Source of the DNA: Takakia lepidozioides | Lineage: Eukaryota; Plantae; Bryophyta | NCBI GenBank assembly: GCA_030704615.1 | Contig: CM060732.1 | Coordinates: forward strand, 79,050,001-79,114,000 | Direction of reading: 5' to 3' | DNA length: 64,000 nucleotides | In this document: one piece after another, positions 28,627 through 58,800 of the stretch | How the letters are laid out: each line of letters starts with the position of its first letter | Position numbering within the stretch: the stretch's first letter is position 1 | Position numbers and translations under genes: made by a program | Notes under the pieces: generated by a model | The model's input: the letters and a program-made list of their open reading frames with translations, nothing else | Told to the model about the DNA's origin: nothing | The model's database searches: none

Positions 28627-31389
28627 ATGGAAACACTCAGCAGCACTTCACCAGAGTATATGTTAATAATTTCTGAGTGGTGTTGTGAGCAGGGGGCTGG
28701 AGATGAGATCACTACCATAATCGGTCGGAGTGAAGAAGTGGATCCCATCTTAGAGAAACTTCAAAATCTACGAGTTGTAAGTAAAATTATCTGGTAACTT
28801 TGGCCCTCTCAGTGGTTCCGTTTCTCACCTCTTTTCACCTCTTTTCACAATTTAAATGTGGGGCTAATATATCCGGCGAGCATCTAGTAGACTTGTTTGG
28901 ACCCTTGTGCCAGCTTTCCTTGCTGCTGTCTAAAAGCATTGACCATACAGCAATTAAGTGAACATTCTGAGAGCTTCTCTGCTCCTACAATGAGATCACC
29001 TTTGGCTGATGGCTTCTTTCACTTTTTCGGAAGGAAATTGGTTAATATCTCCGAGTATGGAAAAGTAAAATATGTCACCATGCATGTATGTATATGGTTG
29101 AAGAACTGAATACCTGTGGCTAATGTTTTATGTTTCGTCTTCTGTGGTAGGCTTTGTTAGTGGAGCCTAAGAAGAGAAAGCCAGATGTCTACCATGCAAG
29201 GTCTCTAAACAACCTAACAGGACCATCAGGTGGGTTCTGCAACTGTTCTTAACCAAAAACTCACAAATAAGAGGCTCATGGAAGTTTACTATCTTTTTTT
29301 GGGGGTGGGCAGGCAGAACCCTTACTGAAACCGCCATCCGTGGAGAGCAGTTTGACAGACATACTGTTGCAGCGCTCGTTGTCTCATTCTGTTGAATATG
29401 GTCTGTTGAGCTTCCAACACCAACTGAGCAATAACTGGACACATGGAAGTCTGAGAGAGCTTTGTCCACATTTACTACTTCTACTGGAACGGTACATAGC
29501 TGTGCTTTGTCAAGTTGACCATTAGGGTCACCAATGCTGATTTAGACATTTAAACTGGTTTCATAAGTTATTGGGGTTGGGATGGCTGGTAGGATCATGG
29601 GATGCTAGCAGCACTGCACAGCTTTTGGGTCTGTACCGGGAGTGGCAGCGCCTCACAGCTGCCCAAGTTAGCAAGAATCAGGTGCTCTCTCTCTCTCTGT
29701 CTCTCTCTCCATGAGCTTTCTGCGGACGTTATAAAGCACCATTTCATTTCTCCCCCACAGTTCATCGACTCTATAGCTTGGAAGCAGGATCGCCCTGTCA
29801 AACAGGCTAAAGTCCTAGCAGAAGAGGGTAGAAGAGATTTTCAAGGATCTGAATCTTAAGTCCGCAAGTCTTTACACTGCTGGATTAATCTGACTTAGAG
29901 GCTGTAGTGTCCAAAGCCATGTCTGGTGCCAGGAAATTGTCTGATGAAAATGAAGTTAGGCAGAAAATTTCCCTGAGCTTGTTTTCAGCGGAAAGCTTAC
30001 TTTGGACAACAGAGACTTAGAGAGGAAAGGGGATCGCAAATGCCTGTTGTGTGGGCAAGCTGAAGACAATATTCACTTTCTGATTCATTGTCCTGGGTAC
30101 TCTCACCAGAGAGACTCCCTCTTCAAATTCATCAAGGAAACTGTTCCTGTACCTCTGTTTACCAGCTTTGAAAATCTCGAGGCTGTGCCAAAAGCCCAGG
30201 CCTTTTTGGGGTCATAGTTATTGAGCAAATCACACACATTACTTACATTGAAACAAACAATTGATCCGAGTTTCCCAGATATCCTCTAGAAATCCCTTCA
30301 CACAGACATCAATCTGCACTACCGGCGTCAGCCCCTGACAAAGGTAGTTTCTGTCCCTTTGTGTTCCGCTCAGACTGGATGCGAGGTCAATGGCCACAAG
30401 GCTACAGCAGCGGCATCTTATGAGTCATTCTCTCTCGCTCACAAACGGCAAAAAGTCTTCTGAGTACATTAACTCTTCCGCCCAAGGCACAGGGTCTATG
30501 GGCACAAGGCTATGGCAAACGTCTCATGAGTACATTCTGCCCCTTATCAGATTGTGGTCCTGTCCCTCCCCTTCTTTTTGCATGGGCAGGAGGAGCTAGG
30601 GTTCAAGATAGATGCAGTGGAAGCTGTGGCGATGAAGCTGCTGCAGCGCCTCAACTACTCAGCATCTGTCATGAAGAGCAGTGCTTCCCACCTCCAGGAT
30701 GGTCTGTTCTTCTCCCTGCATTCGGATTCATGATCTGTGACAACAACTAAATGTACTGATAGGTTCCCATGGCTGGTTTCAACTTCAAAGCATGCAATTC
30801 TGCGCTGGTCACCTGCTGGTGGGATATCCATGGAGGGAAATTTTGTCTAGCCTGGATGTTTCACCGAATTCTCTTGTTGGAGTTGAACTCTGATTACCAG
30901 TCTGTAGGTTTGTGGTGATGAGATGATACTTTCTTTGAAGCTGAGAAGAGGCAGCCAGAAGACCAAGCAGTTTGTGTAGAAAATGTGGATGTTATCCATC
31001 ATCGCCATGCTCTCAGACACCAGAGTATCTTGCTAGTTGCAGGTTAAGTGGTGGGTGCTCTTGGGCATTGGGCAATCTGTGGTAATATAGAAAAATGTCT
31101 GGTTGCAGTACAATTCTTGAAGGTGGAGGTGAGGGAGATGAAGCAGGGGTTGAGTAAAGTCCTCGAGAACTACAAGGTCCTTTGCAAGCGTATTGAAGCC
31201 CAAGGCCCAGACTTCTTGCATGGCACCAACCAGCCTGCTTCACGCACTGTTTCTTTGCTCAACAGAGAGCAAACACTTGGGGGTCCCTCGCTTCCTACGA
31301 AGCACCTGGTTGATATGACATCACAGCTCAAAAGCCAGCCATCATCCTTGGTGGCTTTATCAACACAATCAGATGGCAGATTGCTGTGA
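28627..31389 (+). CDS. Conserved plant coiled-coil protein (BORCS5/LOH1CR12-like, tentative), 5 exons
   Basis: Phase-consistent GT-AG exons: 28693-28776 (GAGDEITTIIGRSEEVDPILEKLQNLRV), 29313-29400 (AEPLLKPPSVESSLTDILL), 29593-29681 (LLGLYREWQ), 30590-30701 (AVAMKLLQRLNYS), 31109-31389 (LCKRIEAQGPDFL...stop). In-frame ATG at 28627; the true start is uncertain. Confidence 0.8.
29750..30470 (+). mobile_element. Non-LTR retrotransposon 3' fragment (intronic)
   Basis: CLLCGQAEDNIHFLIHCPGYSHQR is a C-terminal CCHC motif of LINE ORF2. Family-shared 3' tail. Confidence 0.75.
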
Positions 31390-31959: not shown

Positions 31960-32670
31960 TCCTGGTCTTAGCAGGCAGTGTTTCAATGGTGGGGAGGCTT
32001 GCAAGATCTATGAGCGAATGCGGCGGGAAGGGACAGGGTCTGCATTCTCAATGCATGTGCCAGCCTACAAGCCCTAGAAATGGGCAAGCAGGTCCATGCT
32101 GCCATCAACAAGAGTGGCATGTATAGCCTGATATCATTCAGGAGACTGCGCTCGTCGACATGTATGGCAAGTGCGGGAGCTTAAAGGATGCCCAACAAGT
32201 GTTTGACAACATGGCTCAACGAAAGGTGGTCTCATGGAGTGCGATAATTGCAGGATATGGTCAGCATGGCTGTGGTAGGGCGGCTTGCCAGATGTATGGG
32301 AAGGTGTGACACCCAACAATATTACATTCATTTCTGTTCTCAATGCTTGTGCCAGCCTAGGAGCTCTGGAGAAAGGTACAGAGTCCATTTTGACATAGTG
32401 GAAGCTGGAATTGCACCAGATATCATTCTGGAGACTGCCCTTGTCGATATGTATGCCAAGTGTGGGACCTTGAACGATGCCAGACAAGTTTTTGACAAAA
32501 TGTCTCAACGAAATTTGGTCTCATGGAGTGTGATGATTGCAGGAATATATGCCCAACATGGGTGTGGTACTGAGGATTTCGAGATGTATAAGCAGATGAT
32601 ACGGGAAGGCATAACGCCCAACAAGGTCACGTTCACTTCCATTCCCAATGCATGTGCCAGCATAACAGAC
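31960..32670 (+). pseudogene. PLS-class PPR pseudogene fragment
   Basis: TALVDMYAKCGTLNDARQVFDKMSQRNLVSWSVMIAG...ITPNKVTF, with frameshifts and deletions. Confidence 0.85.
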
Positions 32671-34685
32671 CAACGCAAGGAGCCCTTCCAATCTGATATG
32701 CTTACGTACACTCTAGGGAGGGCAGGTAAAGGACACTGTGAAAATCTATTTCATTGCGTGATGTGATCGATTTTTATTTCGCTTGTCTAGGTCGCCAAGG
32801 AAGAATTTGGAAGGTGCTGGTATTTGCAGTCTGACATTCAGAAATGGGGTTGCGACTGCAATGGAGTTATGAAGTTAACAGGGATGTTAAGAATATCCAT
32901 TGTAACTGCACACAATATGGATGGGGTCGAAGGGCTGCAAAGAATCCTTAAAGCTATGAGCTGTTATGCAGATTTCTCTCTTCTCTCTTTATCATCCATG
33001 TTTCACCGCCTCCAGATTCCTGACTCCTTCTATCTGCCCAAGATATTTAACTATTTTTCTTAGTCTATCTCAGTCGATGCCGAGTGGGCCACCCTATTGT
33101 AAGGAAATCCTTGATATTAACTGTGGCCAGCCATGAATTACCCCTCCCACGAATCCCAGAAACGTTTATAGGAAGAGTGGACACTCTGGTCTGGGACCAG
33201 CTCAGTATTGTCTGTGGCTTGCCTTTTGTGTGTTGGACCTGTGTTTTATGGACCCTCTTTGGATTTGTAAGAAGGTTTCACCCTGACTGTGCATCTTGTA
33301 TTCAGGAAAGTTAATGATGTTTCCCCAGACTGATTGACTACGTGCGCACAGCTAACTGTGGATTTGCGAGCACCTTGCAAGCTGGAAATCACAACCCTTG
33401 CGGGAGCATTGGCAGCTGCTGTCGTATTGGAAAAGTTTTGCTTCATTTGATAGTAGGTGTGGTTTCCTGGATTGGCTTGAGTGTTGTTTAGAAATTCCCA
33501 ACCTTGGGGATGGATGTGCTTGGGAGCATGGTAGTCCAGATCCAAAGCTGTTAAGACAGTTACCCTGATCACACAACCTTGAAAAGACTCTTAGGACTTT
33601 GAAGTGAGCCCTAATGGACACTAAAGAACAGCTAATACTGTTCGTCCTCCAGTTTCGCTGCATGACTGTATCTAAGTGCATGTCTGTTGCTCTCTATGTT
33701 CACAGAGTGCCAGTAAGTGCAATCTTCCAGATTTGATTGCTTGGTGTACCATAAATGTGTTGCCAACTACACAGCCTAGTGTTTTGAAAAACACACGCTA
33801 GCCTTTTGATAAAGGCTGCACCACAGTGGAAGGAGGTAGATATTTTGGGCCTTCTTCAGACTGGTTACCTTGCAGCCACGCACCCAGTAGGCTAGACAAA
33901 CTCCCAGTTGGGTGTTACTCTTGTATGATCTAATTTGTCTTTTGGCAACCGGCAACGTTATCTGTAGCTGGTGGCATTCATGAATTGAACATTGAGAAGT
34001 AAGTTATGGAAAGAGTCCAAAATGGTCCGTGGCGGTCATAATAATAATATTCCCAAGCCTGCTGGTCTTAATTTCTGTACCTGTGAACATAGTAGTACCT
34101 TCACTGCTAGGTTAAGTGTAGACCCTGCAAGCATATGAACTGGAGGGAGGGAGATGTCCTCATTAAACTCGGTTTGTTGCAGCCTTGTGGCCATACACCT
34201 GTAACCATTTTGGGTTAAGGTGGAGAGGGGGATATGAAGAAGGGAATTTACAGCCATCAGCAGAGCTCACTCCAGTATTGCAATCTCCATAAACCTCAAT
34301 TAATCCAGAAGGGGTTTTCCTTCTATTATATTGATTAAACTTATGCCTTGAAAATCGCCTTGTAGACCTTGTTCCCAGACTTGGAGCTGTTTAGAGGATG
34401 AGGAGATAGAAGGAGAAGCAATGATGCACAAATCCTAGAGCAGGAGGTTCAATGTGTGAACCTGTCACATATCATGGCATCCATCAGTTCAAAGAACTAT
34501 GTGCATTCTATCTCATGTCAAGTGACTTGAGGAGCTCCTTCAAGGCTTTGACACAGTATTCCACTGCAACAGGACTGCAACACAGTAGGTATCGAATATA
34601 ATATGGGGAGTAGCATGGGTTAATTCCCTAGTAGTTTGATCCACAGCAGTGAATCAATATTTCATTGAAAAGAAACATCGCATAC

Positions 34686-36746
34686 CTTAGCAATGTCGCC
34701 CAGTTCTGATATGGGGTCCACAGCTGTTGATGACGCGGTCCCAACCTGCAAATACCCCAGTCCCATCATGCACAAGCATGTCAAACAGATGATCCAAGCG
34801 TCAAATTATCAAAGCTGGAAATTTGGAACTCTAACCTCTGCAATAGATGCACTTGCCTCACAAATCTTCTGCTATTAGCAGTTGTTGTGCAGCAATACTG
34901 AATGGACTTTGTGATCACATAGGGGCCCATCCACAGAGAAATGCACCTTTTGGGGCTAAGATCACTAGCAGGTCAATACCCGCAAAGGGACCAGAAAGAA
35001 AAACACATCAATCTTGTCATGAAGAGGATGCTCCTAATAGACAAGCAGCCAGAATCCCTGTCCTCTACTGAAAAGAAGTACAATCCAGGCCCAGATACCA
35101 AGTTAATTTCAGCAGACGTTTAGATATTTGGAACCGATGCAGTGAGAAAGAATGGCACAAGGCCAGCTGCAATATCAGCCCCTACAGCTTTTGCAAGCAC
35201 TGCTGGTGACAAGGCATAGTTTGTAGAGGCATTGTAGCGGTCGAAAATTGTTCATGTTGATGCCAGTTATCTGTATACGATCACCAAGAAAGTTAGACAA
35301 CGGGCACGTAAGTTCCAACCAGAAAGAAGAATTATATACAGGAGAGGAAGCAGGGAGGGGTAGTAAGAGCCTGGGAGGATCTGTTGATTCTTGTGCGAGA
35401 TGTCTATCTGGCAGGCCTTTTGCACACATGAATGGCTTTGATCCGAAGTGTAGATGACAAGCTTACGGGCACCGCTTCAGCCTCAGATATGCCATAGGTG
35501 CTCGTCACTTCTTTCAAAGCACGCTTGCGGGCTGCCAGCATCACTACCAACACCGCCTCACTGGCAGTTCCTTGAATGACTCCCCCACCCTTGCCTGCCA
35601 TTTCACACTCCCATCTTTTGGTGAATGGCCAGCCAACACTGCCCACTATCATAGCAAATGAATAGGAGTATTCTAGTCACACTGGCTCAGAGTTGTGGAC
35701 ACTCAAACACCTACCTGGTAGGCAAGCTAGTGCACTGCCCTCATAACCATAGGTAGATAATTTACTCATAAGATGTTTGCTGTAGCCTTGTGGCCATAGA
35801 CCCCACACCGAGTTTGGGCAGAACTAAAGGGAACAGACAGTTCCTTTGTGTAGACAATTAGCTCTAGAGAGCCCTTCACACATGCATCAACCTGATGTGT
35901 GTGACCTGCCCGGCAAATAGACCCCAACAGGGCCATGGCTTTAGGCTCAGCCTCAAAAATTTCAAAGTTGGTGGACAGAGGTGCAGGGACAACGTTCTTG
36001 ATGTTCCTGAAAAGAGTCACTCTCTGGTGAGAATATCCCGTGTACCAAAAAATAAATATTGTCTTCAGGCGCCCGCACATCGGGTAATTACAATCTCCTT
36101 TCCTATCTGCATCAGTGTATTGTTGAAAGGTAGGCTTCCCCACCCTGAGTATAAATTTCAGTCTGGTGCGGAGGGTAGGTAGGCTCTTCAGATCATTCTT
36201 AAGGTCCTCACCCATGTCAAAGTCTGGAAACAAGTTCAGGGAAGGTTTATGCCCAACTTCATTTCCATTGGATAGTCTTTGGGCATCCAATATGGCCTTA
36301 GACACTGCAAACTTCAGGTCAGCTTCATCTAGCAAGGTCAATTCTTTTGGGCTAATATTCAGTTACTTGTAAATCTCTTCTACCCTTGTCAGCCAGGACT
36401 TAGCCTGTTTTACAGGACTGTCTTGCTTCCAAGAAATAGAGTCAACTATCTTAAGGTATTCAGTATTAGTCATACGAGTATTAGCCATAGGTGGAGAGTC
36501 GCTGGGATAGATACCAGAGGACAGAAATGCATTGGGAAGCTGTAAAAGCTTGCCGAGCCAGTCTAGCACAATGCTTTCCAGTTCTGGTGCGGCTGGGGAT
36601 TTAATCCAACTGAAGCCAAGCACATTGAAGCCACCACTGAGAAACTCTCCTAGCAAACCTGCTGTGCTACCGTTGTTAGGGAAATAGCCAAAAAAATTGG
36701 GGCTTTGCCAATGCGTGACCCCGGGCAAGATTTTGCTCTGCAAATC
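34686..36746 (-). pseudogene. Aromatic-L-amino-acid (tyrosine) decarboxylase pseudogene
   Basis: [18 protein letters not shown]...[19 protein letters not shown]; GKGGGVIQGTASEAVLV; YTSDQSHSCVQKAC after a frameshift; GTASSTAVDP. No 5' or 3' end; a LINE lies in an intron. Confidence 0.85.
35766..36460 (-). mobile_element. Non-LTR retrotransposon 3' fragment in decarboxylase intron
   Basis: Same family as 24690-25460, in reverse orientation. Confidence 0.75.
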
Positions 36747-37439
36747 TGCACACATCAAGCATTGAGATATTCTCAGGGTAACAAACTTCACAATGATGCC
36801 ACAATCATGAAGTTGTGTGGGCAGGCTTAGAAGCTAAGACTTGGCATCCTTCCTATGAGTAAACTTGGTTTTAATGGCAATGCTGAAAAATACACTCAGA
36901 CCTGACGTGTGGCATACATGAAGGGCGGGTATCGAGTCAACAAGCATTCCTACCACCAAGGCTTTGGGGCTCATCCTCGAGATTTTTGAAGTTGGTGAAC
37001 ACGGCGTGCAGGAACCCTGTTCTTGATGTTCCTGAAGAGGGTTTGCAGATCATGAGATCGGGTCCTTGCTCTTGTCATAGATTGAAAACAAGTCTAGGGT
37101 AGTTTATGCCTAACCTCATTTTCAAAGGACAGTCTTTGGGCACCAAACAATATAGTTTTGGACACAACCCCCTCTAGGTCTACTCCCATTGCGAGGATCA
37201 GAAATGCTTGTGGGCTTACATGCATGGAGCTGCGATGCTTAGAAACTATTTGTTTATGCCGAGGTGAGTTCCACACTACCGGAGTGAGCCCCTCACAAGG
37301 TAGTTTCTGGTCCCTTTTGTTCCATCCAAACTGGGCGTGGGGTCTACGGCCACAAGGCTACGGCAAAGCAACATCTTCTGAGTACATTCTATTGCAAATT
37401 GATGAAATCAGCTTACTAGCATGCCTTTGGTGATTTCAA

Positions 37440-37950
37440 AGACTCCATCCCGTTGTACATATCTTGTAATCATGGGCTCCATGATCACACCACATTTCGT
37501 TCAGCCATATTGTTGAACACTCCCTTTGCATCCTTGATGCACCCACATTTGGCATACATGTCTTCCAGCAGGCTCGCACATGCACTACAAAAGGCAAACA
37601 AACGTAATGTGGTCGGACTTCACCCCCTCCCACATCATTTGCTCATAGGTCTGCAAAACCTGCAATCCCCGCCCCTGTTGTGCATGTCCTGAGCGATCAT
37701 CACGTTCCACGACACCACATTTCGCTCAGCCATATTGTTGAACATTCCCTGTCCACAAGGGTAGTGTTCAGAATGACATCTGCCACAATTCCAGCTTTGA
37801 CGATGCAACCATGGACCTCTTTACCCTTCTCCAGCAGGCTCGCACATGCACTACAAACGCAAACAAACGTAATGTGGTCGGGCTTCACCACATCATTTGC
37901 TCATAGGTCTCCAAAACATACAATCCCCGCCCTTGTTGTGCATATCCTGA
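37440..37950 (-). pseudogene. PPR array fragment (3' half, split by inversion)
   Basis: VKPDHITFVCVCSACASLLEKGKEVHGCIVKAG. It continues the 43940-44387 fragment across the inversion breakpoint. Confidence 0.85.
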
Positions 37951-40900
37951 GGTGCAGGCCAAGGGCAGGCTCAACATGGCCAAGGACGCGGAGGTCAGGG
38001 TGGTGACCAAGGTATGGCCAACCGGCTTCAGCAGCTAGAGCAGAGGCTTGCTGCCATGGCCACAACTCAGGTGGTACCGGCTCCAAGGCTGGATGGTCCA
38101 CCTCCTGCTCCTGAGGGAGGAGACTTAGGAGGCATGGGATTCATGTGCGGGGCAGCACTACCACTATGGGTGGGGCACCACTACCACTTGTGCCAGGCAG
38201 TACTACCACTACCACTATGTGCGGGGCATGACTACCACTAGTGCAAGTGGAGTCAGCTGCGGCAGTGACTAGAGGAGCAGCACGAGTTCCTGAGCCACGG
38301 GGTACGGAGGTGGAGTTGGATCCACAGCGTGGGGAAGCAAGCCGTCAGGCCAGGCTTCCTCAGTCATTCACATTGGCGGAGACAGTATCGACACCATCCA
38401 TGGCACCTAGTTCCCGCCCGACTATTACCAAGGCGGAGGTTACTATGCCATTGGGGAGAGCTACACGGGCAGCACCACTACCTAGTGTTGCCAAGGCTAC
38501 GGCAGCTAGTGTGCTGCTGGGGGCGGCCAAAGCTGTGTGCCAGGCTCCATTGTTCTCGGCTACCATGATTGTGACGCCGGGGGTAAGACCAGCTGAGGTG
38601 TTCAGGCTGGCAGCGACACTCTGTGAGAGTGGGGAGGTTACTTCATCTTCTGCGGAGATAGTGGGAGGTGTAGTGCCGGAGGGATCCTCGGATGTGAGGG
38701 TCAAGACTGCCACGGCGGCACCATGGCAAGCTGCAGTTGCCAGATTGATGGAGCTGTCAGCTAGGCCGGCCATTGAGCGCGCCATGGTGACACCTGGAGT
38801 TATCATGTTAGACAACCAGGATGACATTTTCTATTTGAGTGGACCGGCAGGCAAGAGGTATCGGCCACTGCGGGTCTTGTTGGACTCGGGAGCTCAGCCA
38901 TTGATGTTGGGCAGAGCTGCTATTTTTTCGACTGGGACCACGGCGGTGCTTTCTCTTTCTGAGGCGTCACGTTGTCAGGTTTTGGGGCAAGCTATGGATC
39001 TAAATTGCTTGACTTGGATTATCAGCTTGGTTATGGCTGAGCAACGAAGAGTGCGGAGAGCACTTCCCTTGACGGTCTCTCTGCCTACCGAGACGGTACA
39101 GGCAGTGAGTGGGGGCGAGCCGGTGAAGACCACGGGGTGTAGACATCCATGGCACACGTGGGAGGTGCTCGAGGTTCAGAAGGAGTTGACAGCCAAAGCG
39201 GCTGTGATGGATGAGGTTGGGAATTCTTCTCGGGTTGAGGAGGTCCTCAAAGATGAGATGATGGGGCAGGTGGAGGCATTGTCATTGATCGAGCAGGCAG
39301 GGAGTACTACTCATGAGGTTGCGGCATGGCAACCACGGGACGCGTCCTCTACCTCTAAGTCTACTGGACTGAAGGTTGCAGTTACGGAGGACAATTGGGA
39401 GCCTGACATTGGACCCATTGTTACTGGAGGAGAAAGACGACGTATACAGCGGTTCCTGAGGCTTACAGGAATTGCTTTGCCTCTCGTGCTACGGTGGAGC
39501 ATGAGAGACATGTTCAGGTTGTGCATCGACCGGGTTTGGTCAATAAGGATGCGAATGGATTGAGTCGCAATCCATGCACGAGCCAGCAGGATGACACTGG
39601 AGCTCGGTGACATGGTGAGACGGATGAGGAGATGGTGTCGGGATGACATGCATCTGCCTTTTTTGTGTATCTTGGCATCGGGAGGCCAGGTTGGACCTAC
39701 AACAGGGATGACTGTAGACGGAGTGTCTGAGGACCCTGAGGCTAGTGATGAGCCAGGTGGTGCCAAAGATATACATGAGGATTCGGTTGTGTTGGACTAC
39801 CTCTGCACTGGAGACACGACAGCTAGTGTGACTGCCAAGGAGAGGGATCGGATTTTACAACGAGCCAAGAGCTTCAAGTGGGAGGGGATACACCTGCGAG
39901 TGTAGGAGGATGGTCGGGTGAGGATCGTGCCTCACCCAACACAGCGTGCACGGTTAGTGCGGCATGCCCATGAAGAGTTGGGGCATTTTGGAGTGCAACG
40001 CACTCATAGTTTACTGCAGGGGCAGTATTGGTGGCGTGGTATGCACATAGAGGTGCAACAGTTCGTGGCTAGGTGCATGGTGTGTGACAGGGTGCGTGCT
40101 TTATTCAATGCCCCTACACCACAGTTGCATCCTTTACCCATCATGGGATTGGGCTACATGTGGAGTCTTGACTTCGCAGGGCCTTTGCCACTGACGATGC
40201 GTCACCACAGATATGTGTTGGTGATAGTGGAGCACTTCTCCAAGTGGATTGAGTTGGTTCCATTGCCTGACAAGGCTAGTGAGGGGGCTGCGTATGCATT
40301 CCTGGATCGTGTGCTTAGCCGATTCGGTGCTCCAGGAGGTACTCACGGACCAAGGGAGAGAGTTCTTGGGGGAGTTTCAGGCTTTGTGTGATAAAGCCTT
40401 GATAGACCACCGTACCACTTCTCGGGATCATCCTGAGGCCGATGGGCAGAGAGAGTGGTGCAGACGGTGAAGAGGGGTTTGCGCAAGTATGGCTTGCAAA
40501 AAGGACACCAATGAGATTGGGATCTTCAGGTACCTTGGCTAGTCATGGGCTACAGGTTTAGCAAGCAAGCATCACTTGCCACCTTCTCACCATATTTTCT
40601 TCTTTTTGGCCGAGAGCCAGATTTGTCTGCGTCTATTCGCAGGGAGGCTGCAATAGTCCTCAACCTTGATGATCCGGATGTGTGGATACAAGCATGTGCC
40701 CAACGGGCAGAGTTGTTCAAGAGAGTCATGCCTATGGCTTTTGAGAATCTTGCTATTGCCCAACACCGAGACACATTGAGGTATGTCACTATACGTGGAA
40801 GGGGATATCGGCCAGGTATTTGGCGTTTCCACCGTGGGGACTATGTGTATATGCAGCAGACAGCGCCTACGACCTTGGATGTCACAGCAGGACGTGTGAT

Positions 40901-41059
40901 TCTAAGGGTCAGGGAGGTGTTACCTTCAGGAGTGTTGATTCTGGAGGGTCGAGATGGCATGGTATGGAAGGACCATGTGCGTAATTGTGCGCCATGTCAC
41001 CTTCCACATGTGGATGGGATGATAGATCCCAACCTTGCAGTGGTACCTGCAGGATTGCG

Positions 41060-41198
41060 TTGCATGCTATGTGGGCATGCTCGTGGTGCCGCCACTATGC
41101 TGGTGTGTGATCGATGCTCAAGAGGTTGGCACATGGGATGCTTATCACCACCTCTTGAGAGGGTTCCTGATGGAGATTGGTTATGTCCACACTGCTTG
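41060..41198 (+). CDS. PHD finger at integrase C-terminus
   Basis: CMLCGHARGAATMLVCDRCSRGWHMGCLSPPLERVPDGDWLCPHC is a C4HC3 PHD, in the same ORF (40545-41204) as the integrase tail. Confidence 0.92.
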
Positions 41199-41464
41199 GG
41201 ATAGTGGCAGTGGATATGACTAGTGGCAGCTCACAAGACATGGGAGGCCAAGCTCATAGGAGTCAATACCCAAGATCTCAGGCTCAAGTTCACAGGTTGC
41301 AAGACGGCGACTAACGATGGGGCAACTCTTGTACCCGGCCTCTTGATCTATTGAGTTTGAGTGTAGTAGAGACAGTGGTGGAGGACCTAGTGAGGTTATG
41401 GCCACTATCACATCTTGTGGCTACCTGGACTTAGAAGGACCTAAACGCCAACTAGGGGGGCGAT

Positions 41465-42224
41465 TGTGATGGACTAGTGGTAGCCTAGTGATGGACTAGT
41501 GGCAGACTAATGGTGGCTAGAGGCAGCCTAGTGGTGGCTAGTGGCAGCCTAGTGGTTGCACTAGTGGTGGCTAGTGGCAGCCTAGTGGTGGACTAGTGGC
41601 TGCACTAGTGGTGACTAGTGGTTGTCTAGTGGCAGCCTAGTGGTGCACTAGTGGTGGACTAGTGATAGACTAGTGTTTGGTGTGCACTGTTGTGTAGCGA
41701 TATGTATGCGCACGACAGCTGTCAAGTTATTTTACCACTGGTGTGAAGTTAGCTAGGAAATAGCTAGCTTTTATATATTGCACATTTGGGATTGACCCAA
41801 GTGTCAATCCAGGGACCAATACATGTTTGGGCACCTGACGTTGTTATCTTCACGGCAGATCGCGGTGGGCTCATCTTTCTCGAGTTGAGCCTCACTGCGT
41901 CTAGCTATGGCGCCGTAGTATGGATTCCCCATGGCGTGGGGTGCACTTGGCTCGACTTCATATATGAGTGATGTTTTCATGTGCAAGTGTGTGAGTTTGA
42001 GAGAGCTTGTATGCTTGTATCATTTCCTTTCTTTATCATTGTGATGGACTAGTGGCTGCACTAGTGGTGGCTAGTGGCTGCACTAGTGGTGACTAGTGGT
42101 TGTCTAGTGGCAGCCTAGTGGTGCACTAGTGATTGTCTAGTGATAAACTAGTGTTTGGTGTGCACATATGTTGTGTGGTTTTGGACAGCGATATAGTTGT
42201 GTAACGATATGTATGCGCACGACA
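41465..42224 (+). repeat. 3' terminal repeat complex A(41465-41717)-GC-B(41720-42038)-T-A'(42040-42224)
   Basis: A and A' both run TGTGATGGACTAGTGG...ATGTATGCGCACGACA. B runs TGTCAAG...CTTTATCA and has a TATA-like element at ~41772. Confidence 0.88.
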
Positions 42225-43939
42225 TCCTCCTTAAAGACAAGACCACGCATCACTATCAAAAACATGTAAGTCCATGTTCTAATTTCTCTAAATAAAACCT
42301 GCATTAAATACACCTCCCTTGATAAAGCTTCTACTAAATTTTCTTAATTATTTATACCAAATAATAAGATTATTATTTTTAAAATACGTTATATATTTTT
42401 CAGTGTAATAATATTCAATTTATAGTTTAATTCGATTTTATCTTTTCATTCTCTCTTATGTTGGGTACCTTCAACATTTTTCTATTGAAACATGTTTTGT
42501 TGAGGTTTTGGGGGAGTCGATCCCAAGATCGGTGTCCAAGTTACTCAACATGGGTTGATGTTTTGGGAAGTCCATCCCAAGACCGATGTCCTTGCTCATG
42601 ACAACAAGCATTTGTGTCTTTTCTGAATCGACTGCATGTTCGAAACCACTTGTAGTGCACCTAAGCATCGAGCTACAACATACATCGCTGTCCAACCACA
42701 CTTCCTAGCATATAGTCCTAGAAAGCCATGCCACGGAGCTCTAAGAGGTGCACTATTGCCATAGAAGAAAGCAAGTGATACGGAAATGGTAAAAAGAGGA
42801 GAAACCATTCTATCACGTTATATAAGTCAAGCCAATGGCACTTTTGCTAAATAACTCCACCATACAGACCTCACCCACTCTCCATCTCAAGTACTAGAGC
42901 TATGGCGGCGAGAGAGGCCTCGGGAGGCTCGACTAGAAGAAGACGAGCCTGCCTACGCCTCACGGGAGATAACCTCTCCACGTCCCAAGTGAGGTTCGCC
43001 ACCTCACTTGGCACATGGAACCAAATGAAGTCCCAATGCCAACAAAATACAAATATAAATATATAATGTCCTAATTAGTTAGAAATAACTATTCTAACTA
43101 ATCACAAACAAAACCATGACACACTGAAGGGAACAACATGGAGTCGTTTGTTACTACTGCACAGTCGTAACGGTCAATTTCGGCCCACGGGGGCATTTCT
43201 ACTGGCAGATCGAAGTTGCGTCAATGGCTCCGCAGTCGGCGCAATATTTGCGGCGATTTAATTGAATTACATAAATTGAAAAAATAGAAAAAACGGCAAT
43301 TCCAAGTGGTTTTAAGCACTAGAGAACTACTCTTATACAACTAGGCATTCATTGCATACCCTATTCAAAAATGGAAATTTTGTAAGTGCTCCACATGGCT
43401 CATGACGTGGAATATCTTAATGTATTTTATGGCTTGTGTGACTCATAGAGATTGTTCTAATCGTCGGATGTAAAACGATCTAAGGGTTAAAGACTAACTA
43501 TGTCCTTCGCCTGAATTCGTCTAAGTGTTGGGAGAGGGATGGAGGTGTTGGAGAGAGATTAGCAAGCGATGCGGGAAGGACGAAGACCAAATCGCGGCCA
43601 ATGTCTGTTGTTGTTGCAAGCGTTTATGGCGTCAGGGGCGCATTATGTGCAAATGTGGGCTCTTGGCTCCCCTCGGTACCATGATTTGGTATTCTTCCTT
43701 ATGATTACAAGGTTCTTGGGAGAATCAGCTTGGTCTTAGCAGCCCAATTTCAATCTCTGCCTGCTCAGCTGCACCGTGGTGGTTCTCACGGACCAATCCC
43801 ACATTACCTGACTACAGACACAAGCAGCACACACAAGAGGTCTTCTTGGGTTCATGGTCAGTCTAATCCTCCATGGGTCATGACACAAGGTAGAGGACAA
43901 TGTGGTGAGGGCACCTTCTTCTTCGACCTATTTCAGCCT

Positions 43940-44387
43940 GTTTTGTCGAGATGTGGTGTCGTGGAGTGCGATGCTTGTAGGGTATGCACAGCATGGACGA
44001 GGGATGAAGGCTTTGGAGACCTATGAAGTTGCGAAATGAGAGTTTGACACATGGCTGAACGAGATGTTGTCTCATGGAACACGCCGATCGCAGGATATGG
44101 CCAGCATGTGTGCGAGATGAGGGCATTAGAGACATATGAACAAATGTTGCGGGAAGGGGTGCAGCCTGACCGGGTCACGTTCATTTGTGTTTGCAATGCA
44201 TGTGCAAACCTGGCAGCCCTGGAAACCTGGTAAAGGGCGAAGAGGTCCATCGTCAAAGCTGGAACTGTACCAGATGTAGCAATACCTCGTCGACATGTAT
44301 GCCAAACGTGGGAGCATTCCCTTGTGGACAGGGAGTGTTCAACAATATGGCTCAGCGAAATGTGGTGTCGTGGAACGTGATGATCGC
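43940..44387 (+). pseudogene. PPR array fragment (5' half, split by inversion)
   Basis: MAERDVVSWNTPIAGYGQH...GVQPDRVTFICVCNAC. Ends at GATGATCGC. Confidence 0.85.
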
Positions 44388-44592
44388 CTGACCACCTCGT
44401 CCTCTCTGGGCTGCTCCACCTCGCCCCCGGCCACCATTGTTCCCTTGGAACTGGCCTGGGCGCAACTCAGGGTGCAAACCATAGCACTGGGCCTCTCCAT
44501 GCCCGTACCTGCCACAATGCCCACACTGCACCTGTGCAGGCTGTGCCGGTGCCAAACCATTGCCTCCCTCTAGGCAATCCTTCTTGACATGG

Positions 44593-46023
44593 GGCTTGGG
44601 CCTCACAGAGGCGGATATGGAGCCGTGCCTTTTCCAGATACAGACATCTCTGGGAGGATCAGAGCAGGCTCGGGGCATGACACGGCGTGAGTTGGCTATC
44701 AGACTACAGCTGGATCATCCTACAGATGACTCAGTGCTGAGAGCCAAGGCCATTGTGACAGACGTGGTCTCGTACGATGTCCTTGTTGGTGGGGCAGTAT
44801 TGTACCCCAAAGGCTTCACCCTGGATTTTTGGGAGGAGTCAGCTTCCTATAGGCCTGGATGGCAGTCAGGGGAGGGCTGGCGTGTGCAGCTCCCTGTGAC
44901 GTTCATAGGAGGAGTTGCGGTTGCCCAGCGAGGCAAGATGCCAACACTGGCAGCATTCACAGCTGCAATGACTTGGCCTGGAGAGTTGTTGGATGGCAAC
45001 ACTCATTCAAAGGATGTGTCACCTCCGGGAGAGCAGGATGACATGTATGGTATGGCGGAGTTGCCTGCCATGGTTGCTCACACTCCATTGTGGGGCTCGA
45101 GCAAGGATTTGCAACGGGTTGCTGATTGTCGTGTGCAACAAGCCTGGGTAGAGGCTTTTGTACCGTCAAGAGAGGAGGACAGTGCGGGGATTGCACCAGG
45201 TCCACCTTAGTTGTCACCATTGGATACCACACCGATCATGTGGCAGTGTCCGGATGAAGGCATTTGCTTTCTGGACTTGTTTGGCGGGATCAGCACCGGA
45301 TTGGCTGCTGTTCTACAGGCAGGTGTACGAGTACGATGATACTTATATGTGGAGAGGGATGAGACTGCACGACGCATCTCCCTACGCCATGTTGCTCAGT
45401 TGGTGCAACAGTACCCTGAGTTGTTGCCGGTGTCTGCAATTCGTGGATATTAGCAGGCCTTGCCAGCAGACATTTCGTTGCTGGGGGCGCAGGATTTGGA
45501 GCGGGTTGGCTCCATTGATCTGGTAGTGGCAGGTTGGCCCTGCCAAGGGCATTCATCAGCCGGGCATGGCAATGGATTGCAAGACTCGAGGTCAGGTTTG
45601 TTTTGGGAGATGGTGCGGGTTTTGCGCCACTTACAGCTTCATCAAGTTGTATCTCCAGCATATATCTTGGAGAATGTGCCACTGATGGGCGATTCTCGGG
45701 CCAAGGTGATGGCCAGTATACATCAAGTCCGGTCGTGACTTGGGTCAGCAGTGCTGCTGGATGCAGCTGCAGTGGGGTCACGGGCTCATCGTCCACGGTT
45801 ATGGTGGTTTAACTTGATGCCACCCGCACAGCTTAAGCGTGCATTTGATGGGGTGCAACGGCCAGCACACCTCACAGTGAATAGCATTTTGGACACAGGG
45901 AGGCAGTCTCAGCATGTGAGACACGATGACCATTCGCCTTTGGCAGTGGTCAACAAGGTGGGTCGACCACGAGCAGCACTACCTACACTGCTCAGTTTCC
46001 CAGGATCGCATGCTTTCCGGGAT
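44593..46023 (+). pseudogene. Protease C-terminal half fused in frame to a C5 cytosine DNA methyltransferase (motifs I-VIII)
   Basis: One frame with four in-frame stops. SYDVLVGGAVL (protease flap/end), then LDLFGGIS (motif I), YVERDE (II), DLVVAGWPCQGHS (IV, catalytic PC), SGLF (V), ILENV (VI), AHRPRLWW (VIII). Confidence 0.88.
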
Positions 46024-47997
46024 AGCAAAACAACAACTCCCCCACACAAAAAACAACTCCACAGTGTCGCTCCTGCAACCCAGCCCAAACCCGGACTGAC
46101 TCTTGCCTCCACCTACAGAAAGGTCTCGGCCTACAGAGAAGGTGGAAAGCTACGAGGAAGAGAAGCTAAAGCAATGCCTATCCCAAGCACGCTCTCATCC
46201 CAACACCCTCTTTTTTTTCCTCTCTTTTCTCACTTGCATGACCATGAGAGCATCCTGTAGACACTCCTCAAACCGCCCTCCACGAGCTCATGAAACTTGG
46301 CCTCCAAGGCCCCATGCAAGCCTCCACAGGGTCCGCCAGTGCCTCCTTACGTCCACCAGCCATTCCTCCGAATGGAACCACCTCAGGAAACCACACCGTT
46401 CACTGAAGGTTCAAAAATGGAGCAAATAGAGGTACATATAGGCCCCAACAACATTCTGTCCAAAGGAATTACCTACAGGCTGGTCTTCCCCATAGTTAAG
46501 AATTGGGCTGAAAACCCGAAAAGATTACCTCCAGGGAAGTAATCCCCTTTGTTAAAATGCAACAGGGAGGCAATTCCGACTTTTCTACCAGATCAGCTAG
46601 CTCAAAACCGTTGTTCTTCAGAGCCCAGCCTCCCCATCAAGGTCCCACGAAACGAGTGAAAGAAAAAGGTTTATTTATTTATTTTATTTTTTTCACTCTA
46701 ACTGTTCGCGGCCTTCCGTGGCTCCAACCGCCACGACTCCTCACGGCCCGCCCTAGGCACTCATTGGCCACGGGCTCCCAGTGATACCCCGTGGTACCAC
46801 TCCCACGAGCCTTCACGGCCCGCCATCCCCACGATCTGGTCACCGTGCCCATCCGTTGGATTCGGGCCACGACTTCCAACGGTCACGGTCAACGGTCACG
46901 GTCAACCATAACGACCTGGGCTCGTGATATCTCGTAATACCGCCCCAACGGCCCATCACGACCACTATTCCCTGCGATCCCTGGAACTCCCAACGAGTTC
47001 CCATGCGTTCTCGAGGCGTTCCCGACGTTCCCACGTGTTCCCGAGCTGGGGTTTGCTCCAGCTCGGGAAGAGCTATGGCTTCTGCGGAGCCATCAGCCCC
47101 GTTGCCCTGCACTCCTGAGCTCTCACGGCCCACTAGAAGTGCCTCCAACTCAACAAACATTATATATGCTGCCCAACAAGTTCCATTTTCTTCATGAAGC
47201 TCACAAAAAACAAATCTGAAAATACACACCTTTACAAACTTGGTGCACTTGCACTTCTCATGCATCTCCCTTGGCTCTAGGGCGCCTCGTTGCTGCCCTT
47301 CCAGCCCCACTCTTGCCACTCCAAGAGCCCTTACACTGCTGAGTTTCAGATTGAAACTCCAACTCAGCACATGTTTCACAAGTGCACTAATTTGCACACA
47401 AGAGGGACCAGCCCCCTCTTTTCACTCATACCTCTTCATGAGCTTGGAGCTGAAGCTCCCAATGGGCTGCGATGCATCCCCTCGCAGCTCCACCATTCGG
47501 CTGCTCTTGATCTACCCGCAACAACTAGTTTCGGGCAGAAATACTTGGAGCTGATCATATCATCTCCAATCTGCAACATGCTAGCTTCCCATGCGCAGCC
47601 CACATTCCTGCAGCTCCTTAACTCGGCCTGCAACTGAAACATGCTAGCTTCCCATGCACAACCCACATTCCTACAGCTCCTTAACTCAGCCTGCAACTGA
47701 AGAAGACGACCACCAGTTCGCCCACTCGTGGCCAGCATCTCCTCCGCTTCACACTAGAAGCCCAAACTTGGTTGCCATAGCGTTGAGCTATGCAACGCCG
47801 CTCTTCAACATGGACTACCCGCCTCTCTATCCCATGGCAAACCTGCAACCTGTTCGCCTTTGCACTCTATCCGCTTTGGATAGGCTCATGCACGGCTCCC
47901 TGCATTTTAGGCTGAACCGCTTCTCATGATCTGAAAACACAAGTGCTACAACTAACTCGAACTTGACACTCACAGACTCGAGCTCATCTTTCTCGAG

Positions 47998-48315
47998 TGA
48001 TAAAGAAAGGAAATGATACAAGCATACAAGCTCTCTCAAACTCAAACACTTGCACATGAAAACATCACTCATATATTAAGTCGAGCCAAGTGCACCCCAC
48101 GCCATGGGGAATCCACACTACGGCGCCATAGCTAGACGCGGTGAGGCTGAACTCGAGAAAGATGAGCCCACCGCGATCTGCCGTGAAGATAACAACGCCA
48201 GGTGCCCAAACATGTATTGGCCCCTGGATTGACACTTGGGTCAATCCCAAATGTCAATATATAAAAGCTAGCTATTTCCTAGCTAACTTCACACCAGTGG
48301 TAAAATAACTTGACA
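47998..48315 (-). repeat. 5' terminal repeat (block B only) of element 2
   Basis: Near-identical reverse complement of 41720-42038. No A block beside it. Confidence 0.9.
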
Positions 48316-48556
48316 AGGAGCCAACAAAAATTTATAGAATTGCTGATGAATAAACTCCATCATTAGTAGCAGTGTCAAGTCACAGTGCAGCTAAGTCCCA
48401 TAAATTTGTTGGCTCTCTTATGCAAGAAAAAGAATATGCATTGGCATGTTGAAGTCAACGAAAAAAATGTGGTCAGGCTCCAATTGGTGTGTTGTGCTCA
48501 GTCATGCCCCTTACTCTCACCTCCTTATGCATGAGAGCCCATTGCCGTTTGACTGA

Positions 48557-54819: not shown

Positions 54820-55460
54820 GAGAATGTTCTCATAAGTCGTTGTTTGCCGTAGCTTGCCCCGCGTCCAGTTTGGGCCGGACAAAAAGGAACAGACACTACC
54901 ATTGTGAGGGGCTCATCCCGGTAGTGGTACTTACCTTGGTATAAACAATTAGTTCGGGCTTTCCAGATAAGCCCTTCACACAAGCATCAATCTCCTGGGT
55001 GTGAGCTGCCCAGCAACTAGACCCCAACAGAGTCAGGGCTTTAGGCTCAGGGTCGAGATTTTCAAAGTTGGTGAACAGAGGTGCAGGAACAATGTTCTTG
55101 ATGTTCCTGAAGAGGGTCACTTTCTGGTGAGAATACCCCAGACAATGTATCAGAAAATGGATGTTATCTTCAGGATGCCCAGCAATCTCCTTTCCTCTCT
55201 GCATCTGTTTATTCTTCAAAGGTAGGCTCCCTGCACTGAGTTTACGTTTCTGTCTAGTGCTGAGGGTAGGTAGGCCCTTCAGATCATCTTTAATGTCCTC
55301 ACCCATGTTACAGATTGGAAACAAGTTCAGGAAAGTCTTATGCCTAACTTCATTTTCATAGGACAGTATTCGGGCATCCCATGGCTTTAGACACTACAAC
55401 CTACAGGTCAGCTTCATCTAGCAGGGTCAATTCATCTGGGCTAATTTTCAGATACTTGAA
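54820..55460 (-). mobile_element. Non-LTR retrotransposon 3' fragment
   Basis: GHPEDNIHFLIHCLGYSHQKVTLFRNIKNIVPAPLF; same family as above. Confidence 0.75.
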
Positions 55461-55875
55461 AATTAGAGAAAGAGAGGAAAGCACACCTTGAGCTTCTGAG
55501 ATTGAGTATGTCACATGTAATATCTTGCAAGTTAAACCCAATCGGGTGACAAGCTGCTTTAATTCTTCTGAGTAAATAATATTGTACGTAGCAGGTCAGG
55601 TCCTACAAGACATCACCACACATTCGCAGCAATGATACCCACAGAGGACTTATGGCCGTTGGGAATCTTATACATACCGTACTCTGGCTCTTCTTTTCCC
55701 ACTTGAATGAGAAGGAGGTGCTGATGCATGATCGTCGAAGGCTAGGAGTGGAGCATTGCTGGCCACAGCAGGGTCCTTAAAACAACAATTCGTGTATCTC
55801 AACGATTGTGCATACCTTCTGGACGAAAATTGCAAGGCAGAGTCAGGAGACTTAGGGAAGACAAAGTCTGAAGGG

Positions 55876-58800
55876 ATGTCGCTGGCACGTGATCTATACA
55901 AGACAAAGCTGTGCACGCTGTTTCTGCAACGAGGACATTGTCCACGTCAGAGCTGCTCATTTGCACATGGAGAAGCAGAGCTCCGCAAGTTTCCTGGTGA
56001 GCCAATTTTTTCAGATATATTTTTACTTTCTATGGTTTTGGCGTCATGGATACTGAGATCATCATTGAGGTTTAAGGTTGGTATTCTTCTTCCGTTGTGG
56101 TGCAAGGTGACTCTGGTTCATGTCCTTGTGCAATTTACAGATCATCCGAACTTTGTGTTACCAAAAATCACATCAGTGGAGGCAGGCATCTTGTCCCATC
56201 ATCCTGCTGCTCCGCTTTAAACCTGGATCTAATACAACACGTTTCGAGCAACATGGCACTCCATCTAATGTGTTGAACTTGGTGTTTTAACGATATTTGG
56301 CAAGGAATCAGCCCATGGAAAATGGTCCATGTGTAACTGTCCATTCTCCCATTCTTTTTGTGTGGAGATACAGGGTGGCCTGAAGGTCATTAATAGAGAT
56401 TGCCGGGATGGTTGCGGCACATCTTGGTTGGAAGTGACTTGCAGTGTTGGCGAATTTCATCACATCCTACATCTCGGAACCTAGCACGTTGATCTGTAAA
56501 GGTTACATCCACAGTACTTTCTCAATATGATCTTTGCAGCCATTGCAGCTTGGTGGTGAAAGTGGCTACCACCTGTGGGCCATCTTACAACTATTTGTTG
56601 AAGAGAATATGGTAGGTGTAGACGTGATCAGGAAGCTCATTTGCTGGAGGAATGCTTTGCAGATTATGCTTGCCGATATGGTGCTGGATAGAACCCCCTG
56701 TCTGGGGATGGAAGCTTGCGCTCTGGTTATTTATTCTTACATGGAGGCACATTCTTTTCTCAAGTATTGCTTTATTTTCAGTTGTAATTGCCAGGCACAC
56801 ACAATCCATCGAAGGTCTTGTGAATGGTGTCTGGGTTTTAAGGGAGTCATAAATCTCGTGGTAACATCCATGGTAACGCCTTCCACAGATGGTTTATGAC
56901 CATATTCCCTATGAGAATAAGGAGCTATATTAGCCCATGGACATGGGCTTTTTAAAAGCAAGAAGAGGCATTCTTGTGCACAGTCCATTAATTCGCTCCT
57001 GTGCTCCGATTAATTAACGGTAAGCTTATGAGTCTCCATCCACCTCTCAGCAGTAGGTCTTACTCTCATCTGCTTGGTTCGAACTTTCTGGGGGGACCCT
57101 GAAGTGTCTGGTGCGGTGTCTCATGTTGGTGTTTGCACCTTTCCACTTGCAGATACCCGTGGTGGTGGCGATTTGAGGGACAGGTTAGATCGCAGACACT
57201 CCCCACCAGTTTATCGACGCCGATCTCCATACAAAGGTGATAAAGGGCGTGATTCGTACGGCGACCATAGATCACCATTGCGTGCCAAAGGTACACACGA
57301 TTTCAAGTAGGAGCTTCTTAGAATATTACCAAATGTGATATCATCAACGTATCTCAATTTTTGTGTGTTGCAGAAAGTGGTTTCGCATCTTTATGCCGTG
57401 TTCGACGTCCTTGAAAGGACATCGGTGTATCGTAGATCTCGGGCTGCTACCTTATGCTCATCCATACTTGGATATGCTGTTATTTATTTAGAATCTAGAA
57501 GAGCTCAGCATGTTCAGGTGGTCATACCATGTTCATGTCTATGACCATGGGGGCAGGTCATAGTCATTCAAGATCACCAGCAAGGCGCAGGCGAACACGA
57601 TCTCTTTCAGCACCAAGGTCACCGGCATATAAAAGGTAGGTTATTATCAGCAGTTGAAATTTTCCTTGTCCTCAGCGCCATAATTTTTATGTATGCATTT
57701 CCATAGGTTTAAACAGACGCTTGTTGTCTTACCGGGTACAGCATGGCCCTTTGAGAGTATTCTCAGAAGCAAACCTGCATCATGACCTTAAACTAACAGG
57801 AGGGAGAGGAAGAGGTTGCGCTCAGATGCAACAGATGCACACCTCAGTGATGTCTCGGGGGAAGACCATGGGGTTGACAATGCTGGTGCTGGTAACGGTA
57901 GGAGTCCATCTCCGAGTGTCCGAGAGGCACTTGAGGAGCAGGTCCGTAGGCTCATCCCCATCCTTCCCTCTTAAGCTATACAGTTTGGTGCCTTGCATGC
58001 TATCACATACAGCAAGTAGCTAGATGCTGAGTCTGTAGTTGTTAGTTTTGCAATTTGACCTATGCTTTGGTTGCTCTAAGTCGATCTGTGTGTGGGTTTG
58101 GTGCTTTGCTCAGGTGCGGGAGGTTCATGCTGAAAAGAAGGCACTGCAAGTTCAGAAAGTAAAACTTGAGGTAACCCTTTATGATACTCTTGTATCTGCT
58201 ACATAAGAGCTGTATCATGCAAGCAGTTTTGGGTCAACGACCCATGACTATTAACTACAGTTAGCATGGGCAAAAGGCAACTGTAGTAATGGGTATGGTA
58301 GATTTACATCTCAGACAACACATGCATGCCTACTCATTAATCAAGGTCGATACTTACTAGATGGACACATCTTTAAAAAGCCCTGAACAGTTGTGATTAC
58401 ACTTTTGTCTGTCGAGAGTATCAAAAAGGAAAATGCAGATTTTGTTTTTGCTATTTGAGTCATGGCTGCCCGCGAGTACCATGACCATCAGAAAATTGAA
58501 TGACAGCTTTCTCTTCTTGGAATTGTGTACCTGCAGATGTCATTGCAGAAGAAGGTACAGGAGACCACGGAGTTGTCAGAAAAGATTGCCTTACTTGAAT
58601 CTCGGTTAGCTGGGGTTCAGGAGGACTGCAGTGGGTACGTTCTATCCCTGCCCACAACTTTGTAGTGGCTCACAAAGCATGGGGCTTATGAGATGTTCGA
58701 TGGGTGCAGGGCTAGCTACGGGAGCTGAAGGTTCAGGCTGTTATCAATCTGTTGCTCATTAGAAGGCAATGCACATTCAGTTGCTATGCAGATTTTCGTT

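Follow-up and report, generated by a model that had tools for sequence, protein, structure and literature searches.

A decayed Gypsy retrotransposon with a DNMT3-like methylase and a PHD-tipped integrase in Takakia lepidozioides: anatomy, relatives and a proposed circular route of insertion

The window analysed here is the whole stretch of 64,000 nucleotides from Takakia lepidozioides (GenBank assembly GCA_030704615.1, contig CM060732.1, positions 79,050,001 to 79,114,000 of the forward strand). It harbours a Ty3/Gypsy retrotransposon that encodes both a DNA methyltransferase (DNMT) of the DNMT3 type and an integrase (INT) ending in a PHD finger. The window DNMT, the DNMT tail and the INT-PHD region are pieces of one Gypsy element. 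This copy is dead, internally deleted and locally reshuffled: Its pieces have been re-joined out of order (Table 1). Anatomy and family assignment are regarded as almost certain. Six-frame translation yields two blocks on the + strand, 37950-41204 and 44596-46021. P0007, an intact open reading frame 1 (ORF1) from Marchantia, served as reference for placing the pieces, which tile this protein (residues 309-372, 363-650, 654-1133 and 1162-1243), each matched once. The order protease (PR), reverse transcriptase (RT), RNase H (RH) and DDE integrase, typical of Ty3/Gypsy, is found in the intact P0163, P0290 and L003, and the window pieces map accordingly.

An earlier sequence-only reading had proposed that a DNMT and a PHD-tipped integrase belong to one Gypsy element. 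This is borne out by the tiling of P0007 and by joins in other copies (see below). The motifs I (45271), IV (PC at 45538), VI (ENV at 45670) and VIII (RxR at 45790) were located, the PF00145 profile matches the DNMT piece with E=7e-14, the DNMT tail FSTGTT…GQAMDLNCL starts at 38925 as expected, and the C4HC3 PHD finger at the integrase end was confirmed with PF00628. That the DNMT follows the protease in frame holds for the protease C-half, but DSG is located at 38883, at a distance of 5.7 kb, and both domains are separated by a linker of about 100 residues, so that the DNMT does not follow directly. The limits 38880..46023 had to be abandoned: The real element spans ~48315 to 42224 in scrambled order.

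Table 1. Parts of the Takakia element, listed in element order from the 5' to the 3' end
Feature	Position	Strand	Remark
TCCT, 4-bp target-site duplication, outer side of A1	48316-48319		
Repeat A1, 5' element end, TG…CA	47998..48315	-	311/319 columns identical to A2
16-nt primer-binding-like site directly after A1, predicted self-priming	47982..47997	-	Complementary to 48152-48167 (A1) and 41869-41884 (A2)
5' leader / unrecognisable gag start, ends CFLCGG (first zinc-knuckle half)	46038..47981	-	Weak
Piece S1, gag: end of knuckle 1, knuckle 2, RGG tract	44387..44594	-	P0007 residues 309-372, E=4e-18
Piece S2: gag tail, spacer, protease N-half, DSG at 38883	37950..38924	+	P0007 residues 363-650
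Piece S3: protease C-half, linker, DNMT motifs I-VIII, most of target-recognition region	44596..46021	+	P0007 residues 654-1133, 57% identity; PF00145 match
Piece S4: DNMT tail (motif IX end/X), ORF1 end, Pol start	38925..39490	+	P0007 residues 1162-1243 and P0180 residues 3-35
About 12 residues of RT remnant fused to RNase H end	39467..39655	+	RT otherwise deleted; identified by visual comparison with the residues following YIDD in four intact Pol proteins
Integrase: H2C2 zinc domain, DDE core, C-terminal region; stops and frameshifts	39666..41057	+	PF17921 E=1.5e-15, PF00665 E=4e-5; 67-77% identity to P0180
C4HC3 PHD finger, integrase end	41061..41195	+	PF00628 E=1.3e-10
Polypurine tract directly 5' of B1	41454..41464	+	Like tract in L003
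Repeat B1, TG…CA, CTAGTGG tandem units	41465..41717	+	
Palindrome GACA-GC-TGTC at B1/A2 border, predicted internal integrase attachment junction	41714..41723	.	
Repeat A2	41720..42038	+	
Repeat B2, 3' element end	42040..42224	+	One extra T (42039) between A2 and B2
TCCT, 4-bp target-site duplication, outer side of B2	42225-42228		

The DNMT frame of the window copy is interrupted by four stops (45208, 45337, 45451, 45736), and RT and RNase H are mostly deleted, YxDD included. The leader piece 46038..47981 was assigned by its position and because it completes a CX2CX3HX4C knuckle with the piece at 44594; no significant gag match was obtained for 46023-47997 (best E 0.21; knuckle half E 1.8). 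In all four sequencing runs searched, contigs from other copies join 38924 to 44593-44596. This means, the protease N-half is joined to the DNMT piece, and the PR-DNMT fusion is present in other genomic copies, as the sequence-only reading had expected. Furthermore, contigs join 37948-37950 to 44386 on opposite strands, which is what a reciprocal inversion through a PPR-like (pentatricopeptide-repeat-like) sequence predicts. The inversion 37950/44386 cuts through gag and such a repeat. PPR-like coding fragments at 37420-37950, 43900-44386 and 32127-32766 behave like a high-copy repeat, and one of them is split by the inversion. Together with the decarboxylase fragment described below, they indicate a host among land plants (Streptophyta). 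Depth sums of the element reach 5.6e5-1.1e6 in run X1 vs 68 for a unique flank contig; these values are not copy numbers and show a repeated family.

The family is widespread in green plants. With the DNMT piece as query, 54 of 151 candidates were relatives, the top ones from Marchantia, Sphagnum and Calypogeia with 64-77% identity; with the INT-PHD piece, 105 of 1,710 were, and 14 of these are annotated with both PF00145 and PF00628. A DNMT profile search returned 508 clusters at E≤1e-30. Among the best 150 of these 508, 105 have another retroelement domain; the other 45 comprise the DNMT only (244-650 aa) and are probably fragments. The PF00145 profile misses the DNMT domain of many members (P0358, P0354, P0411, P0397, P0243-P0245), which is detected by the family profile. 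P0397 additionally has a G-patch. Hosts are liverworts, mosses, Coleochaete, Klebsormidium (KFL_009030040), Mesostigma and chlorophytes, the named algal members including Tetradesmus, Enallax, Hariotina and Haematococcus. Hence, the lineage is not confined to land plants, as had first been assumed.

Two architectures are observed. PR-DNMT precedes RT in every classable named streptophyte member. In P0163, PR-DNMT-RT-RH-INT-PHD form one ORF of 2,811 aa. Every named chlorophyte member has the order RT-RH-DNMT-INT-PHD. The sequence-only reading had suggested to compare DNMT, RT and INT phylogenies with Klebsormidium. The DNMT tree (74 rows) is split by architecture with a support of 100/100, and a second one (72 of 181 eligible rows) supports the after-RH group with 98. 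The window DNMT nests among bryophyte sequences. In the RT tree (64 of 143 eligible rows), all 11 before-RT elements group with 19 of 22 Pol-only proteins (SH-aLRT 96); since the window copy lacks an RT, this placement rests on its relatives. DNMT and RT trees thus show broadly the same split. In the INT tree, which is consistent with the Klebsormidium grouping but weaker, the window INT-PHD is placed together with Marchantia, Coleochaete and the full-length P0163 (support 98). The simplest reading of these trees would be one DNMT capture followed by one move within the polyprotein. A move in either direction is compatible with the AU (approximately unbiased) test, in which DNMT-before-RT as one clade was not rejected (p=0.52); the outgroup of the DNMT tree consists of two Symbiodiniaceae sequences. 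Among viral contigs, searches with P0007 and with the Pol alignment yielded no relative; 17 weak DNMT loci had E values of 9e-15 or worse.

The ends of the element are unusual. In element order, they read A1…B1-A2-B2 with TCCT on both outer flanks. The whole B+A unit is present on the 3' side only, i.e. the copy does not have two full long terminal repeats (LTRs). TG…CA ends, a short target-site duplication and a polypurine tract are all present, each in this one copy. The same A…B-A-B layout, which is DIRS-like, is given in the figure legends on KnitGypsy-Dnmt3 (PMC5890265). Directly after A1, the 16-nt self-complementary site is not matched in length by any of 10,000 shuffles, and the RNA fold has a z of -3.8. 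A tRNA gene for primer comparison was not found in the window. The relative L003, a divergent, near-intact member of the family, is a 9.2-kb circular contig (1-9285); it comes from an assembly labelled as cyanobacterial, in which it presumably represents eukaryotic contamination. Its self-complementary site has the same geometry with different letters and comprises 12 nt (1 of 10,000 shuffles). Between the LTRs of the window copy and L003, one clear stretch of ~40 nt is conserved, and this stretch ends with CACGACA-GC-TGTCA at the B/A border. The 14-mer containing the palindrome has a single occurrence in the window and another single one in L003, where its position within the LTR is the same. 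The T between A2 and B2 corresponds to the base that precedes B1.

Between ORF1 and Pol, a stop codon is found. Codon 39327-39329 is TGG in the window and TAG in other host copies (39328 G>A in 71 contigs of X1 and 40 of X2), with CAA CCA next. In L003, an open Gag-PR-DNMT ORF is followed by a single TAG CAA TCA and then by an open Pol with a PHD-like finger at its end. Type I readthrough, the tobamovirus type, uses the signal UAG-CAR-YYA (PMC3542737). A UAG-CARYYA stop between Gag-PR-DNMT and Pol is therefore common to two families, the window family and L003. DNMT and RT are in the same frame and separated by a stop in L003, in the other host copies and in L001, the one used of 2 loci from a metagenome scan; in P0163 and P0157 the frame is continuous. 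The 14 ORF1 proteins inspected end 62-147 residues past the DNMT, which fits a stop between the ORFs. In the literature searched, no description of CARYYA readthrough in retrotransposons was found.

The methylase is an intronless Dnmt3-type domain within a Gypsy coding region, a feature of the KnitGypsy-Dnmt3 type. A DNMT profile matches DNMT3A with 1.6e-27, DRM with 1e-16 and HhaI with 1e-10, and DNMT3A/B ranked first over DRM, HhaI and DNMT2 in sequence, profile and fold searches. The model of the L003 DNMT has a pLDDT of 92, and its nearest Foldseek neighbours are DNMT3A/B (E 1e-16, TM about 0.62-0.66). In 135 full-length domains, the catalytic Cys is kept in 128 and the ENV-type and RxR motifs in 127 each.

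Among 53 DNMT-selected representatives with room past INT (72 with INT; 150 examined), 51 have a PHD after INT; therefore, the pairing of DNMT and PHD is the rule. A chromodomain, the chromovirus feature of Tcn1 and Chlamyvir, was not found by Pfam at the integrase C-terminus in the window and the long relatives; the PHD is located there instead. The closest solved relatives are the fingers of CHD4, KDM5A/B, PHF12, ATXR5 and PHF21A, which are readers of unmodified H3. PHD fingers that read H3K4me3 (ING/BPTF type) carry an aromatic-cage Trp two residues before the zinc-binding His. At this position (H-2), 117 of 129 distinct fingers of the family have G and one has W, so that the cage Trp is not a family feature; an Asp follows Cys3 in 112/129. 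The PHD is without the methyl-lysine cage Trp and probably binds the unmodified H3 N-terminus. The PHD of Chlamydomonas REM1, which the sequence-only reading had placed on the integrase, is said to belong to a separate antisense ORF.

Based on these features, the following life cycle is proposed. Intact members would encode Gag, protease and the DNMT3-like methylase, then RT, RNase H, integrase and PHD; they would methylate their own cDNA and insert from a circular intermediate. The true LTR would be B+A, since B borders directly on the polypurine tract and A on the primer site. Minus-strand synthesis would be self-primed as in Tf1. The linear cDNA would then close into a 2-LTR circle, with A2-T-B2 as putative fossil junction. 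The integrase would cut after CA on both strands of the palindrome inside one LTR under loss of the central GC, and A-internal-B-A-B would be inserted. In the window clade, Pol would be made by readthrough, and the methylase would therefore reach Gag levels and be able to load the particle. These steps, from the LTR to readthrough, appear likely. Subsequently, the methylase would act on cDNA cytosines, and the new copy would therefore arrive pre-marked. By binding the unmodified H3 N-terminus, the PHD would steer insertion off H3K4me3 promoters. Chances for and against these last two predictions, cDNA methylation and PHD steering, are about even. The explanation as a whole, a dead copy of a DNMT-PHD Gypsy family with circular, chromatin-guided insertion, is moderately probable. 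A wider picture would be that of a lineage as old as the green plants, in which a palindromic junction inside the LTR replaces linear cDNA ends, cDNA is self-primed and circularised, a readthrough methylase on the land-plant branch pre-methylates copies, the PHD steers them to unmodified-H3 chromatin, and one methylase move accompanied the chlorophyte/streptophyte split. It is doubtful that all of this holds together.

Several observations weigh against the proposed life cycle. The DNA features rest on two elements, the window copy and L003, and from L003, a collapsed circular contig, the inserted end layout is not readable. A 4-bp duplication is expected by chance in about one of 256 cases. 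The remaining three of the 22 Pol-only proteins, which lack a DNMT, sit among chlorophyte-type elements, which suggests DNMT loss. The decayed copy L001 has TAG TAG CCA, not CARYYA, and in P0163 and KFL_009030040 there is no stop between DNMT and RT; readthrough is therefore confined to a subclade. Extra CpG depletion as a sign of self-methylation was not found in the window element: Its observed/expected CpG ratio is 0.52 vs 0.44-0.49 in the rest of the window and 0.40 in the neighbouring Gypsy, and intact relatives reach 0.72-0.84. In the window PHD, no acidic residue directly precedes Cys1, and only 44/129 fingers have one, which makes K4 discrimination uncertain. Finally, the DNMT of KnitGypsy-Dnmt3 gave no DNA methylation in yeast, a result called inconclusive by its authors (PMC5890265).

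The yeast result, together with the lack of additional CpG loss, would also suit a different role of the DNMT with the anatomy unchanged: Its target might be the RNA of the element, other copies in trans or, once integration is complete, the insertion site, or the domain might bind nucleic acid without catalysis. In chlorophytes, the DNMT adjoins INT-PHD, which would suit action at the insertion site. On the other hand, fold and sequence are DNMT3-like rather than DNMT2-like, the catalytic motifs are conserved, and the related SymbioDIRS-Dnmt3 performs de novo CG methylation (PMC5890265). Such a role is the less probable one. Much less can be said for the capture of a host DNMT3 gene limited to this locus or species. 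No host DNMT3 sequence emerged from the searches, and none is contained in the trees, but Marchantia, Sphagnum and Calypogeia have homologues with 64-77% identity as parts of gag-PR-DNMT ORFs, another retroelement domain accompanies the DNMT in 105 of the top 150 representatives, and introns are absent. The capture of an intron-containing host gene, considered by the sequence-only reading as the competing view, is contradicted by these nearest relatives, and its probability is close to nil.

Two further alternatives concern the structure of the locus. The scrambled order might be an assembly error instead of a genuine rearrangement, which would leave the family conclusions untouched. At 99% identity, no contig among the best 32 of 6,246 pieces bridges 44386, 44594 or 46022 with 31 letters per side, the longest piece in this test being 56 nt, and the second Gypsy in the window likewise has inverted end repeats. 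The B2/flank border is covered by two exact contigs with only 28 and 30 B2-side letters, which were not counted as bridging. An assembly error is nevertheless improbable: The breakpoints in the window are base-precise and reciprocal, other contigs make the opposite-strand join of 37948-37950 to 44386, and the short filler 46023-46037 resembles adjacent sequence. Short filler from neighbouring sequence is typical of end-joining repair. Likewise, the A…B-A-B ends might originate from a DIRS/PAT-like route with a tyrosine recombinase provided in trans, or from chance nesting of solo repeats. PAT-type DIRS elements have an identical layout (PMC5890265), and a single inserted copy is seen in the window. 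However, no tyrosine recombinase domain was detected by Pfam in 35 long relatives (two of them Symbiodiniaceae outgroup proteins), rve and H2C2 were found where the DIRS/PAT class lacks a DDE integrase, both ends show TG…CA along with the 4-bp duplication, and no LTR stretch other than the palindrome is clearly conserved with L003. In addition, the layout recurs in Klebsormidium (PMC5890265). This origin of the ends is even less probable than an assembly error.

Judged from domain type, tree position and repeat layout, all of which match KnitGypsy-Dnmt3, the window element files as a land-plant member of Gypsy-DNMT3. KnitGypsy-Dnmt3 of Klebsormidium nitens combines a Gypsy Pol with a Dnmt3-type domain and DIRS-like repeats (de Mendoza et al., 2018; PMC5890265). 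In KFL_009030040 the DNMT precedes RT, and this protein shares the window family's side of the split in both the DNMT and the RT tree. In KnitGypsy-Dnmt3, the DNMT belongs to the Pol ORF (PMC5890265), whereas in the window family a stop separates DNMT and Pol. The main text of that paper, as far as it was available, mentions no PHD, no land-plant or chlorophyte member and no second DNMT position, nor readthrough, self-priming or a mechanism for the repeats (PMC5890265). SymbioDIRS-Dnmt3 shares the Dnmt3-type domain in a retroelement and the A…B-A-B repeats and differs by a tyrosine recombinase in place of the DDE integrase (PMC5890265); in the tree, its DNMT is located far outside the window family.

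The combination of a methylation writer and a chromatin reader in one element, stressed by the sequence-only reading, is confirmed here with DNMT and PHD, but it is not the first: EpiLTRs from Cymbomonas and Euglena, LTR retrotransposons with DNA methyltransferase and chromatin reader, precede it (bioRxiv 10.64898/2026.05.21.726589). In contrast to the window family, these elements combine a chromodomain with DAM and a DNMT that is sister to DNMT4, and the authors regard their DNMT acquisition as distinct from that of streptophyte Gypsy-DNMT3 (bioRxiv 10.64898/2026.05.21.726589). Gypsy-7a_cRei from Chlamydomonas is, by its description, a comparable green-algal Gypsy with a PHD finger, without a DNMT among the listed domains; its insertions between genes exceed expectation 2.6 times (PMC9940879). 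This excess fits targeting, but selection may account for it instead. PHD fusions to transposons are common according to published accounts. Tf1/Sushi and the plant Tcn1 chromoviruses resemble the window family in self-priming without a tRNA primer and in an integrase reader domain, which is a chromodomain in their case, and differ by conventional LTRs (PMC6317226). In the main text of this chromovirus survey, the word 'methyltransferase' does not occur (PMC6317226). The self-priming papers found concern other lineages. Two later papers, one of them on EpiLTRs (bioRxiv 10.64898/2026.05.21.726589), mention for Gypsy-DNMT3, in the parts available, only 'streptophytes'. In a search outside which most subscription papers fell, no paper was found on land-plant or chlorophyte members, the PHD or the two DNMT positions, nor on readthrough, self-priming or an internal junction in Gypsy-DNMT3.

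The window contains additional repeats and genes. A second decayed Gypsy (6827-13349, -) shows, between gag and RT, a dUTPase match too weak to reach the cut-off (PF00692 E=0.002), and its 540-bp end repeats are mutually inverted (91%), due to a second inversion or an unusual element. A dispersed repeat family is present in both orientations (24693-25443, 29810-30409, 35404-37367, 54847-55463, 60673-60735). Next to its copy near 36363-36833, part of an aromatic amino-acid decarboxylase gene is located (PF00282); possibly, this family is a gene-capturing element. The region 15864-23238 (-) comprises an Spb1/FtsJ rRNA methyltransferase gene with introns, an ordinary host gene. Copia fragments (Pol_BBD, RVT_2) and a CCCH zinc-finger exon were found at 876-2316 and 55732-56220.

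What use a retrotransposon makes of a cytosine methyltransferase was a question left by the 2018 paper (PMC5890265). Close relatives from Marchantia polymorpha have open Gag-PR-DNMT frames; this liverwort serves as a genetic model and has known methylation mutants, which renders the question directly testable. In liverwort, moss and green-algal genomes, many gene models named 'DNA methyltransferase' are in fact these elements. LTR circles generally count as dead ends. Should the end structure function as proposed here, a DDE integrase would use a circle junction inside the LTR.

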